A stretch of DNA of 64,000 bases from a virus (taxonomy: Duplodnaviria > Caudoviricetes). This document shows, piece by piece, positions 34,459-47,544 of this stretch (position 1 is the first letter of the stretch; every line of letters starts with the position of its first letter). The DNA lies in the IMG/VR virus record IMGVR_UViG_3300009183_004565; one strand, 5' to 3'. The position numbers were made by a program, and so were the translations under genes. The notes beneath the pieces were generated by a model that had not been told where the DNA came from, did no database searches, and saw only the letters and a program-made list of their open reading frames with translations.

Positions 34459-34795
34459 TAATTTAATTACACCACCTGATTTTGTTAAAGATTCTTTACA
34501 CACAGTGACCTTGATAAATCTTACAGAAAACGAAATCGAGCTTGTAGCCAGAATGTGTGCTGCCAGCGACGAAATGTTTAACATTTATGTGTATCGAACA
34601 GAAATGCAAGATCTAACATGGTTAGATCGTGCTGTGGAAATCAGTGATGCTGTAATACTCAATTGTGCTGTGGATTTTGAGTACAATTTTAAAGTGAGTA
34701 ATATGGAAAAAACTCATACATTAGATTTTCCCACGCACACTCAAAATTTAAATCACGTACTAGATTATTTTGAGAATAGAATCACAAAGAAATAA
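34451..34795 (+). CDS. Hypothetical protein
   Basis: 114-aa ORF overlapping the previous stop. Confidence 0.6.
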   Translation: MHSNLITPPDFVKDSLHTVTLINLTENEIELVARMCAASDEMFNIYVYRTEMQDLTWLDRAVEISDAVILNCAVDFEYNFKVSNMEKTHTLDFPTHTQNLNHVLDYFENRITKK

Positions 34796-34805
34796 ATATT
34801 TGACT

Positions 34806-35045
34806 ATGGCCTACGAAAAACCAAACAAAGTTATTGGAAATTTAGTTATTGTAACCCAAGACAATGTGGAAAAAGCCCTACGCAAATTCAAAAAGAAAGT
34901 GGCCGAATCCGGACTACTACAAGATCTTCGTGAGCGCGAAACTTACGAAAAACCTACTACCCGCAGAAAAAAAGCCAAAGCCGCTGCACGGCGTCGTTGG
35001 AAGAAAAAGCTGTCCGATGAACAATTGCCAAAAAAATTGTTCTAA
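34806..35045 (+). CDS. rpsU: Ribosomal protein bS21
   Basis: NVEKALRKFKKKV..GLLQDLRERETYEKPTTRRKK; ATG 34806 lies 7 nt after AATAAATA. Confidence 0.9.
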   Translation: MAYEKPNKVIGNLVIVTQDNVEKALRKFKKKVAESGLLQDLRERETYEKPTTRRKKAKAAARRRWKKKLSDEQLPKKLF

Positions 35046-35056
35046 ATCAAAAAATT

Positions 35057-35135
35057 TGCTATAATACAGGTATAAATAATTGTGTAGGATGCTTCGGGTC
35101 CTATAAAACTTGCTTATTTTTAAGGAGAAACTATG
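35057..35135 (+). promoter_or_regulatory. dnaK leader: extended -10, late promoter, UUCG hairpin and ROSE-like SD-occluding hairpin
   Basis: TGCTATAAT 35057-35065, TATAAATA 35071-35078, gtaggat-g-c-TTCG-g-gtcctat 35084-35104, CTTGCTT 35109-35115 complementary (bulged G) to AAGGAG 35122-35127. Confidence 0.7.
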
Positions 35136-37019
35136 AGTACAATCATTGGTATCGATCTTGGTACCACCAATAGCTGCGTAGCAGTAATCGAAAACGGAAC
35201 CCCAAAAGTAATTGAAAATTCAGAAGGCGCACGTACTACACCTAGTATCGTTGCCTATACTGCTGAAGAGATTATTGTGGGAGCCGGTGCAAAACGTCAA
35301 GCAGTTACCAATCCAAAAAACACAATCTATGCGTCCAAGCGTTTAATAGGGCGTAAATTTACGGAACAGGCAGTTCAAAAAGATATTGATCTCATGCCTT
35401 ACAAGATCATCGAAAGCGCGAACGGCGATGCATGGGTGTCAGTCAACGACACGGAACTAGCACCTCCACAAATCAGTGCCGAAGTGCTTCGCAAAATGAA
35501 GAAGACCGCAGAAGACTATCTGGGTCATGAAGTAACACAGGCTGTAATTACTGTGCCTGCTTACTTCAATGACAGTCAACGACAGGCAACCAAAGATGCC
35601 GGAGCAATTGCTGGACTAGAAGTATTGCGTATTATCAATGAGCCAACTGCAGCAGCATTGGCATACGGAGTCGATAAAAATGAAAAAGCTGATCGCAAGA
35701 TCGCTGTGTACGATCTGGGTGGTGGTACCTTTGATGTTAGCATTATTGACATTGCTAATGTGGACGGTGATAAGCAATTTGAAGTCCTTTCCACCAATGG
35801 TGATACATTCCTAGGCGGTGAAGACTTTGACCAACGCATCATGGATTACTTGATCACTGAGTTTAAGAAAGAGTCAGGCGTTGATCTTGGTCGAGACGTT
35901 ATGGCACTGCAACGTCTAAAAGAAGCTGCAGAACGTACCAAGATTGAATTGAGTAACAGCACACAAACAGATGTGAACTTGCCTTACATCACAGCAGATG
36001 CTACAGGTCCCAAGCACATGAACATCAAGATGACTCGTGCTAAACTGGAAAGCCTAGTTGATGAATTGATTCAGCGCAGTATTGAACCTTGCCGTGTTGC
36101 AATGAAGGACGCAGGTGTCGTAGCCACGGACATCGATGAAGTTATCCTTGTTGGTGGTATGACACGTATGCCACGGGTTCAGGAAGAAGTTGAAAAGTTA
36201 TTTGGACGAGCACCACGTCGTGATGTCAATCCAGATGAAGCAGTAGCGGTTGGTGCAGCAGTACAAGGTGCTGTACTAGGTGGTAGCCGTAAAGACGTTC
36301 TATTACTTGATGTGACCCCACTAAGCCTAGGTATTGAAACCATGGGCGGCGTGATGACGAAACTAATCCAAAAGAATACCACTATTCCTACCAAGCATAG
36401 CCAGGTATTCTCTACAGCCGAAGACAACCAGCCGGCAGTAACTATCAAAGTCTATCAAGGCGAACGCGAACTTGTACAATATAATAAAACATTAGGTGAG
36501 TTTAATCTAGAAGGAATTCAACCTGCTCGACGTGGTGTACCGCAAGTAGAAGTCACGCTGGATGTTGACGCCAATGGTATTCTTAAAGTAAGTGCCAAAG
36601 ATAAAAGTACTGGCAAAGAAAACCGGATTACTATCAAGTCGGACAGTGGTCTAAGCCGAGAGCAGATTGAAGAAATGATTCGCGATGCCGAAGCTAATGC
36701 AGATGCAGACACAAAGCAACGTGAATTGATCGAAGTACGTAACCAAGCAGATGCAGTTGTCCACAAGATTCAAACTGATATGAAAGAAGCGGAAGGCAAG
36801 CTTTCGGAAGATCAGACGAAACAAATAGATGAGGCAATTGCCAACCTCAACAAGGCAATAGCAGAAACAGACAAAGAACTAATTACCACCAAGGTATCTG
36901 AGTTACTTGTTGCTGCGAATATTATTAATGAACTACAACAGCCGCAGACTACAGAAGAACAGCCCGAGCCTAAGGCCGATGACAATGTGGTTGACGCTGA
37001 ATTTAAAGAAACGAAGTAA
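35133..37019 (+). CDS. dnaK: Hsp70 chaperone DnaK
   Basis: [50 protein letters not shown]-terminal VVDAEFKE. Confidence 0.99.
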
Positions 37020-37028
37020 AGAATATGC

Positions 37029-37096
37029 AGCCTGGATGCCTTCGGGGTCCAGGCTCATATATGTCATACTTGCTTATATGAAAGGAGAAAATTATG
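37029..37096 (+). promoter_or_regulatory. hsp20 leader: UUCG hairpin and ROSE-like SD-occluding hairpin
   Basis: agcctggat-g-cc-TTCG-gg-gtccaggct 37029-37055; CTTGCTT 37069-37075 pairs with AAGGAG 37082-37087. Confidence 0.75.
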
Positions 37097-37531
37097 ACAA
37101 CCTATATTACAACTTTTGACCTACCAACTCTAGCTCGCCACGCTGTTGGCTTTGATAGATTGTTTACTACTCTAAATCGAAACTTTGCTAACAGTAAAGT
37201 TAACGATAACTATCCTCCGCACAATATTGTGCAAATTGACGAAACGCATTATGCTATTCAACTAGCAGTTGCTGGCTTTGCCGAGGACGAACTAGAAATT
37301 GAATACAAAGACAATGTTCTAACAGTTAACGGCAATCAGAAACAAAAGGACGAACTCACATATCACTATCGTGGTATTAGTGCTCGCTCATTCACTCGTA
37401 GTTTCCCACTTGCTGATCACATGGAAGTACGTGGTGCTACTGTAGTAAATGGTATTCTTGCAATTAGTATTGAGCATATGATTCCCGAAGAGGAAAAAGC
37501 CAAGAAGATTGCAATTACCTTCACTAAGTAA
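37094..37531 (+). CDS. Small heat shock protein (Hsp20/IbpA family)
   Basis: GFDRLF, YPPHNIV, LAVAGF, YRGISARSFTRSF, NGILAI. Confidence 0.95.
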   Translation: MTTYITTFDLPTLARHAVGFDRLFTTLNRNFANSKVNDNYPPHNIVQIDETHYAIQLAVAGFAEDELEIEYKDNVLTVNGNQKQKDELTYHYRGISARSFTRSFPLADHMEVRGATVVNGILAISIEHMIPEEEKAKKIAITFTK

Positions 37532-37583: not shown

Positions 37584-37895
37584 ATGAGCAAAACAGATAT
37601 TATTGTAAAACCAAAAATTCAAACTAAAACAAATATTCAACCTCCTGGGTTGTTTAATGTGATCTATTTAAACGACGATACTACTACAATGGAGTTTGTA
37701 GTTGAATCATTGAAGATAATTTTTCATCACAGTGAAGAAACAGCCGTTGAACTTACTCATAAAATTCATGAAGATGGGTCAACTGTAGTCAGTACATTAC
37801 CTTATGAAATTGCCGAACAAAAAGGTGTAGAAGCCACACTACTTGCTCGTACCAATGGTTTCCCTCTCAACGTTAAACTAGAACCCGCAACCTAA
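37584..37895 (+). CDS. clpS: ATP-dependent Clp protease adaptor ClpS
   Basis: VIYLNDDTTTMEFVVESL, IHEDG, YEIAEQK, GFPL. Confidence 0.93.
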   Translation: MSKTDIIVKPKIQTKTNIQPPGLFNVIYLNDDTTTMEFVVESLKIIFHHSEETAVELTHKIHEDGSTVVSTLPYEIAEQKGVEATLLARTNGFPLNVKLEPAT

Positions 37896-47282: not shown

Positions 47283-47311
47283 TTGACATAAATCAAATAT
47301 ACTGCTATAAT
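47283..47311 (+). promoter_or_regulatory. Consensus sigma70 promoter with extended -10
   Basis: TTGACA-17 bp-TATAAT with TG; ATG 5 nt downstream. Confidence 0.85.
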
Positions 47312-47316
47312 GCAGT

Positions 47317-47544
47317 ATGACTCTTACTTTAACTGAAAAAAAATGGAACGAACTCTATAACCAGATCCGCGAGGAACACGGTGATAGTACCGTTCTACTC
47401 TCTTGGAAATTAAAGGAAACATTAGGATTTACTGTTCGTAGACATCGTGACTATAATCCCGTCAATGGACACATGGTCAATGATATACGTTTGGATTTTT
47501 ACGACGAAGCAGCATTAACCTTTTTTCAGTTAAAGTATCTATGA
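47317..47544 (+). CDS. Small paralogue 1 (FxxE..FxL[KR]W family)
   Basis: Ends FYDEAALTFFQLKYL. Confidence 0.65.
   Translation: MTLTLTEKKWNELYNQIREEHGDSTVLLSWKLKETLGFTVRRHRDYNPVNGHMVNDIRLDFYDEAALTFFQLKYL

Follow-up and report, generated by a model that had tools for sequence, protein, structure and literature searches.

A two-hairpin leader related to the ROSE_3 RNA thermometers precedes both dnaK and hsp20 in a phage from lake water

Phage chaperones are usually listed as auxiliary genes and their control is left unmentioned; the locus described here contains two of them, dnaK and hsp20. The locus lies in a 64,000-nucleotide stretch, hereafter the window, of IMG/VR virus record IMGVR_UViG_3300009183_004565 (Duplodnaviria; Caudoviricetes), which looks like a fragment of the large genome of a giant phage from lake water. 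The dnaK gene encodes an Hsp70 protein of 628 amino acids (35133..37019, + strand; Pfam HSP70, E 7e-256) and hsp20 an IbpA-type small heat-shock protein (sHsp) of 145 amino acids (37094..37531, + strand; Pfam HSP20, E 6.9e-22), arranged head to tail on the + strand of the window. Each is preceded by a leader, and both leaders are built on one conserved plan of two hairpins, akin to that of the Rfam family ROSE_3. Judged by their sequences, they are copies of one conserved structured 5' leader related to the ROSE-like thermometers of proteobacterial ibpA genes. The favoured reading, considered moderately probable, is that they act on translation as a switch of the ROSE type, which hides the Shine-Dalgarno sequence (SD) and co-regulates the phage chaperones.

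Hairpin 1 of the dnaK leader (35083..35105, + strand) is supported by sequence, folding, the ROSE_3 alignment, the covariance model R1 introduced below and the covariation of the homologous stem. It spans G35084-U35104, extendable to U35083-A35105, and its core consists of U35090.G35098, the unpaired G35091, C35092-G35097 and a UUCG loop at 35093-35096 (closed cUUCGg). In hairpin 2 (35109..35127, + strand) CUUGCUU at 35109-35115 faces the SD AAGGAG at 35122-35127 with G35112 unpaired, and the dnaK ATG follows at 35133. Hairpin 1 of the hsp20 leader (37023..37060, + strand) begins 4 nucleotides (nt) 3' of the dnaK stop codon and comprises a core at 37029-37055 with an AUAUG/CAUAU extension, the unpaired G37038 and a loop at 37041-37044. 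Its hairpin 2 (37069..37087, + strand) again sets CUUGCUU (37069-37075) against AAGGAG (37082-37087) with G37072 unpaired, ahead of the hsp20 ATG at 37094. Both elements stop 5-6 nt short of the ATG, directly upstream of a heat-shock gene start.

The earlier note on this DNA had claimed such twin leaders, together with the ROSE hallmark of UUGCU facing the SD around an unpaired G. The twin leaders are confirmed by the sequence, by chance tests and by R1, and the hallmark is present in both according to sequence, folding and the ROSE_3 alignment, with UUGCU facing AAGGAG at 35110-35114 (dnaK) and 37070-37074 (hsp20). By sequence and predicted fold G35112 and G37072 stay unpaired whichever register is chosen. 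The extra G may be drawn as a bulge, as in the earlier note, or as a 1x1 mismatch (G x G), which is how ViennaRNA shows it in both hairpins. The same U.G / unpaired G / C-G motif occurs in hairpin 1 and at the SD of both leaders. The core GGAUGC(C)-UUCG-G(G)GUCC is found in the window only at 35087-35101 and 37034-37050 (2 found vs 0.00 expected), and exact ACUUGCUUAU only at 35108 and 37068. Folded alone, hairpin 1 of dnaK reaches -7.4 kcal/mol (z -2.4) and the hsp20 core -18.9 kcal/mol (z -4.3), or -24 kcal/mol with its extension. Hairpin 2 has little stability under the nearest-neighbour model; its lower C-G pair is present in both leaders (C35109-G35127 and C37069-G37087). GCUUAU could also pair with AUGAGU at the start of dnaK, but this alternative was rejected, as inspection by eye showed no counterpart in the hsp20 leader.

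ROSE_3 (RF02523), the family that represents short leaders with two hairpins as known from Pseudomonas ibpA, is the sole ROSE family matching the window leaders. At a permissive threshold both were aligned over all 69 model positions, at 35083-35138 for dnaK (34.3 bits, E 1e-4) and 37030-37099 for hsp20 (23.4 bits, E 0.057; 2.3 kb searched in each case), and the alignment takes in the GGAUGC..GGGUCC stem, the unpaired G and ACUnGCU..AGGAG. The search with ROSE models proposed in the earlier note thus gave an end-to-end match of both leaders, with scores under the gathering threshold of 43 bits. Among 18 related loci, a single hsp20 leader, that of phage locus L027, exceeds this cut-off (44.4 vs 43 bits). 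At gathering thresholds Rfam returned nothing on cyanophage or bacterial leaders, and a ROSE_3 search of 14 control genomes, intended as a calibration on the validated Pseudomonas thermometer, found nothing.

A covariance model, R1, was built from 17 leaders of other phages, with the window excluded and the pairs of hairpin 1 alone annotated. In the 64 kb window it matches 37029-37096 (34.5 bits, E 1.5e-6) and 35082-35135 (32.2 bits, E 5.9e-6), the next-best match having E 0.17. This third match (47297-47345) spans the start of an open reading frame (ORF) of 75 amino acids that follows a sigma-70-like promoter, contains no SD and is regarded as chance. The promoter itself, at 47284-47312, is of near-consensus sigma-70 type (TTGACA, 17 nt, TATAAT) and stands just before the ORF (47317-47544). 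In 80 related viral contigs or loci R1 finds 143 sites, all on the gene strand and each ending at a start codon.

In this related set the element is tied to chaperone genes. A pattern scan of the 80 loci places it before 78 dnaK, 71 hsp20 and 6 groES genes, with 1 chance match on the other strand, and in 71 of the 80 loci hsp20 follows dnaK behind the same type of leader. The region upstream of dnaK has the same plan in all 78 loci: an ATAAATA box, a hairpin, CUU(G/A)CUU and AAGGAG. A second copy of the leader stands downstream of dnaK, before hsp20 or, in some phages, groES. The sequence of the hairpin stem varies among phages, its end always being Y-R-C-C/U .. G-G-G, and some clades insert an extra GGGCA..GCCC hairpin between hairpin 1 and the anti-SD. 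Relatives of the window dnaK (74-90% identity) occur on at least 592 IMG/VR contigs, including one record of 383 kb, rated 100% complete, and another of 353 kb, rated 98% complete, in each of which R1 has exactly 2 matches, the dnaK and hsp20 leaders. The leaders therefore mark a chaperone-specific gene set (dnaK, hsp20, groES) in this freshwater lineage of huge phages.

Several relatives depart from the common arrangement. In a 236 kb phage record a complete element, with ATAAATA box, UGCC..GGG hairpin, CUCGCUU and AAGGAG, precedes an 88-amino-acid ORF with no known function (L339:1501-1566, - strand of the locus; G010:C1:205981-206046). The distance to dnaK and hsp20 is about 17-19 kb, and this ORF may be a further member of the regulon. 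In some loci (L032:4903-5090, L033, L035, L070, L077) a small ORF, starting MAEAGKGSRPRPYSVDKKTFDSNWD or MAGKGSRPRPFSVDQKTFD, directly follows dnaK and is itself followed by the hsp20 leader. In one subclade (L021:834-5975, L022, L023) dnaK lies inside a tRNA gene cluster, not before hsp20, and is followed by a terminator-like hairpin with a U-tract.

Covariation across related phage leaders, a check suggested in the earlier note, is strong in hairpin 1; hairpin 2 offers no such test. The analysis used 122 distinct aligned leaders with 500 shuffles and slid-partner controls. Standard pairs occupy 90.7% of the hairpin-1 cells vs 66.6% in shuffles and 38-66% with slid partners, and both-sided changes number 279 cells vs 92. 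The covariation score is 0.611 vs 0.216, and 0 of the 500 shuffles reached 0.611. The alignment was fitted to the model and so favours structure; the helix is nevertheless secure because of the slid controls and the visible variety of stems. Contigs of related strains, from three lake metagenome runs, also carry G37034A and C37050T, the two partners of one hairpin-1 pair of the hsp20 leader. For hairpin 2, support comes from the near-invariance of the anti-SD heptamer, complementary to the SD, in 131 unique leaders whose flanks vary.

The unpaired purine adds a further regularity. Among 124 unique leaders it is G in both hairpins in 85 and A in both in 39, with no true mixed case; two apparently mixed leaders proved on inspection by eye to be parsing errors. 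The A-type subclade (a subset of L024-L080, e.g. L032:2953-3003 and L079:4907-4961) has the anti-SD CUUACUU and hence the motif UUACU, where G-type relatives keep UUGCU, and its phages carry A in every leader, be it on dnaK, hsp20 or groES. A quickly made DnaK tree (duplicate sequences removed, 14 bacterial rows added, drawn from the pattern scan alone) requires 1-3 changes to the A state, with 4-6 positions changing together per event. Melting alone cannot readily explain such a coupled switch, and it is mainly for this reason that a trans-acting reader is kept in play. The change in both hairpins may point to a shared reader, for example an IbpA-type sHsp.

The sequence before the dnaK leader is consistent with a promoter. 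A TATAAATA box at 35071..35078 (+ strand), corresponding to the ATAAATA box of relatives, is a probable -10-like element, and a second box, TGCTATAAT, lies upstream of it at 35057-35065. If TATAAATA is a promoter, as is probable, the transcript would start at the foot of dnaK hairpin 1. Of 60 unique dnaK leaders, 54 have an ATAAATA box 0-10 nt upstream of hairpin 1, vs 8 of 60 hsp20 leaders. Its presence on dnaK and rarity on hsp20 fit a dnaK-hsp20 transcript that starts at hairpin 1 and contains the hsp20 leader internally. Whether TATAAATA might be the phage's general late promoter was also considered; the window shows no enrichment of the octamer (4 copies vs 6.9 expected), and for this reason it is not called a T4-type late promoter.

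The element is also found outside this group of phages. A scan of species-representative genomes for CUUGCUU..AGGAG..GIDLGTT gave at least 120 bacterial matches; those listed are mostly from Rhizobiaceae, and also from Micavibrio and AT-rich alphaproteobacterial metagenome-assembled genomes, some on contigs of 0.9-2.1 Mb. These bacterial dnaK leaders (L201-L320, e.g. L210:7037-7093, L215:7764-7825, L233:3237-3311) combine a URCC..GGG hairpin with CUUGCUU..AGGAG. R1 matches 18 of 38 tested bacterial loci (best E 2.7e-7) and 0 of the Rhizobium ones, and ROSE_3 scores 30 bits on L215. The Micavibrio-like and AT-rich alphaproteobacterial leaders (L215, L233, L222, L270 and others) resemble those of the phage in the order URCC..GGG, CUUGCUU, AAGGAG and dnaK start. 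They differ in belonging to cellular genomes and in standing on dnaK only in the 5 genomes searched, where, at the sensitivity of R1, no match precedes hsp20. Bacterial genomes gave two further R1 matches, one upstream of an lgt-like and one upstream of an mfd-like gene; AGGAG is absent from both, and they are attributed to chance. The Rhizobium dnaK leader has the same anti-SD behind an AUGCC..GGGGU hairpin, and a search of Rfam that admitted E values up to 10 gave no match to it. No description of the alphaproteobacterial dnaK leaders was found in Rfam at its thresholds or in the literature searched.

Among viruses, the strict two-hairpin pattern occurs on at least 120 contigs and, among the matches listed, precedes hsp20 in 84. 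One sampled hsp20 contig matches the hsp20 region of the T4-like Synechococcus and Prochlorococcus phages, S-SM2 and S-SKS1 among them. In T4-like cyanophages hsp20 is a core gene. In the marine T4-like cyanophages (S-SM2, S-SKS1, S-T4 and others) it has a ROSE_3-like two-hairpin leader (L081-L200, e.g. L081:3840-3874) composed of GGAUGCC-loop-GGGUCC, an A/C-rich spacer and ACUCGCU..AGGAG, often behind a AAATAGTA or AATTAGTA box.

The suggestion of the earlier note that the element was duplicated by the phage onto its Hsp70 gene is weakened by these occurrences, as R1 and ROSE_3 match bacterial dnaK leaders and cyanophages carry the element on hsp20. Since both models match alphaproteobacterial dnaK leaders, the phage dnaK may have arrived together with its leader. 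All sampled phage DnaKs form one clade on a long stem, which would fit one old capture of dnaK by phages; such a capture, possibly with the leader, appears as likely as a copy from hsp20.

The closest validated counterpart is the short thermometer of Pseudomonas ibpA. Like the phage leaders it is about 50-65 nt long, has two hairpins and a free start codon, and precedes an IbpA-type sHsp gene; its hairpin I has GGAUGCC..GGGUCC with an unpaired G, and its hairpin II sets U(U/C)GCU against the SD. There hairpin II alone thermoregulates, hairpin I does not melt up to 50 C, and the structure becomes locked when the extra G is deleted (PMC3669281, Krajewski et al. 2013). The phage leaders differ from it in scoring below the family cut-off, in lacking the upper G-C clamp, in standing also on dnaK and, in relatives, groES, and in following an ATAAATA box where the ibpA thermometer has a sigma-32 promoter; in some relatives, moreover, a third hairpin (GGGCA..GCCC) is present or the bulged G is replaced by A. 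The classical ROSE elements of Rfam ROSE and ROSE_2, from Bradyrhizobium and further alpha- and gammaproteobacteria, share U(U/C)GCU with an extra G against the SD in the 3'-proximal hairpin, but contain 3-4 hairpins over about 70-120 nt and have been described for small heat-shock operons, not for dnaK (PMC3669281). The crystal structure of a validated ROSE-like stem has a U.G wobble, the bulged G and a C-G pair as its weak point, and deletion of the G reduces heat induction (PMC11342760). The ROSE-like thermometers of ABC transporter genes (PMC11342760; ROSE-G, PMC12857270) indicate that the ROSE motif works outside sHsp genes; they have the same local motif as the phage hairpins, in bacteria, on other genes and within another overall fold. 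No paper linking RNA thermometers to phage hsp20 or dnaK was found in the literature search.

In the cIII mRNA of phage lambda, alternative folds set ribosome access according to temperature. That element is unrelated to the present leaders in sequence and fold, allows more translation when cooler, and serves a lysis-lysogeny regulator, not chaperones.

A ROSE-type switch is favoured because the closest validated systems melt an SD hairpin and the phage leaders have the motif of that hairpin. Transcription would start just behind the ATAAATA box, so that the dnaK mRNA begins with hairpin 1, a stable stem that may aid folding of the leader and probably shields the 5' end. The hsp20 gene would mostly be read from the dnaK transcript, with its own copy of the leader kept. 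In hairpin 2, CUUGCUU would pair with AAGGAG around the unpaired G (U.G wobble, bulged G, C-G), and the paired SD would keep the ribosome off at low temperature or in a resting state. The helix is short and has a weak point at the unpaired G, so hairpin 2 should open easily, upon which dnaK and hsp20, and groES in relatives, would be translated together. The analysis establishes how hairpin 1 is built, that the anti-SD is conserved, that the element is confined to chaperone genes and that it is akin to ROSE_3; that the SD is occluded in living cells, that heat opens it and where the transcript starts are what we infer.

Several observations weigh against this switch. No Rfam family reaches its gathering threshold anywhere in the window, and hairpin 2, the part that would act, is without a covariation test because the SD cannot vary. 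In the Pseudomonas thermometer G-C pairs flank the SD/anti-SD core on both sides, and repression in P. putida depends on the upper one (PMC3669281); in both phage leaders U-A pairs, next to the loop, stand in its place. The computed energies for opening the SD at 25 C are 5.0 kcal/mol for dnaK and 2.8 kcal/mol for hsp20, ranking 5th and 10th of 20 window genes, so the nearest-neighbour model singles out neither leader; the energies drop with temperature as for any gene. The source is lake water, a habitat in which a heat shock to 30-42 C is not to be expected. Metatranscriptome contigs fall only within the dnaK coding region, none over the leaders, and some may come from other organisms. It is possible that the set-point lies at a lower temperature than in a classical heat switch, or, by analogy with E. 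coli IbpA, that there is a second input besides temperature.

Among the rival explanations, the leader may be the operator of a protein-titration loop, instead of or besides a thermometer; this is unlikely on balance but deserves to be taken seriously. An IbpA-type sHsp, either the phage Hsp20 or that of the host, would bind the leaders and repress translation of dnaK, hsp20 and groES, until unfolded or aggregating proteins, for example late virion proteins, draw it off and chaperone synthesis comes to track demand. A precedent exists in E. coli, where IbpA represses ibpA, ibpB and rpoH through their thermometer-type 5' untranslated regions, and is titrated by aggregates, an effect that has been reconstituted in a PURE system (PMC10410725; bioRxiv 10.1101/2020.04.20.050740). 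In that self-regulation a thermometer-type leader common to several heat-shock genes provides a handle for one sHsp, by which a regulon can be coupled to protein aggregation; it has been shown in E. coli only. An sHsp at the leaders would agree with the presence of an IbpA-type hsp20 beside dnaK in 71 of the 80 loci, with the U.G / unpaired purine / C-G motif common to both hairpins, with a lake habitat in which heat is unlikely as the signal, and above all with the concerted change of the purine (85 G/G, 39 A/A, 0 mixed), as expected from a shared trans-acting reader. This last correlation, however, represents few independent changes, since 1-3 events on the DnaK tree suffice for the switch; no sequence-specific motif in RNA is known for IbpA (PMC10410725), and the 5 bacterial genomes with a dnaK leader have no R1 match before hsp20. 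A narrower form, in which the phage's own Hsp20 reads the U.G/unpaired-purine/C-G motif and virion proteins titrate it, giving a virus-encoded proteostasis feedback loop, is considered rather improbable; the G-to-A switch of the subclade would then be a trace of reader-operator co-evolution.

Sensing may also be absent altogether. It seems doubtful, though conceivable, that the leader is a constitutive expression module acting through stability or attenuation: hairpin 1 would stabilise the mRNA 5' end and, between dnaK and hsp20, serve as a processing or 3'-end-protecting hairpin, and the anti-SD would damp translation to a fixed level, the whole being inherited with captured host genes and kept by habit. 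That hairpin 1 is the strongly conserved, covarying part agrees with this, as do the modest SD occlusion predicted and the long hsp20 hairpin 1 (-24 kcal/mol when extended) 4 nt past the dnaK stop; 5'-terminal stem-loops do stabilise transcripts, and such a role has been proposed for hairpin I of Pseudomonas ibpA (PMC3669281). A stabiliser would not, however, keep an SD-complementary heptamer with its unpaired purine near-invariant over 131 diverged leaders, nor would it explain the confinement to chaperone genes in whole genomes of 350-380 kb. Finally, the hsp20 hairpin stands after a stop codon, as a terminator would, and a promoter-like box precedes the dnaK copy, as might be expected of a DNA-level promoter or terminator repeat without RNA function. 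Such a feature, or a chance resemblance, is very improbable: zero matches are expected by chance, the hairpin has no U-tract after it, all 143 of 143 R1 matches have the orientation of the gene and run up to a start codon, and the RNA helix is kept by compensatory changes, seen both in the covariation and in the metagenome variants.

The genes around the pair belong to related functions. Upstream of dnaK lies a gene for ribosomal protein bS21 (34770-35045; Pfam Ribosomal_S21, E 3e-16), the end of an S21 gene being found at this position in close relatives as well, and downstream of hsp20 lies clpS (37584-37895; E 1.7e-23), so that bS21, dnaK, hsp20 and clpS form a small cluster of translation and proteostasis genes. 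A search for groES in the window found none. The long ORFs of the window are nearly all on one strand, and PHROG matches include virion structural proteins, a DnaB-type helicase and a ribonucleotide reductase. The C-terminal part of a 221-amino-acid ORF at 32049-32714 matches the ILEI domain ('interleukin-like EMT inducer', PF15711; E 7e-12), an unusual one for a phage. DNA near-identical to the window is present in lake and freshwater metagenomes of several studies, and among deposited phage genomes there is no close relative, the match being limited to the conserved dnaK core. Aquatic jumbo phages with DnaK, in a lineage linked to Bacteroidota, have been described as 'moraphages' in a paper that does not mention the leaders (PMC12619734).

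For phage chaperones, the shared ROSE-related leader is a concrete handle on their regulation, open to bench experiments. With it the ROSE family comes to include viruses, the genes dnaK and groES, leaders of alphaproteobacterial dnaK outside Rfam and a natural bulged-A variant, and this variant allows one to ask whether the unpaired purine sets the melting point or makes a protein contact. If the reading in which the phage's own Hsp20 closes a feedback loop is true, the leaders would constitute a demand-driven chaperone regulon run by the virus without the sigma-32 of its host.

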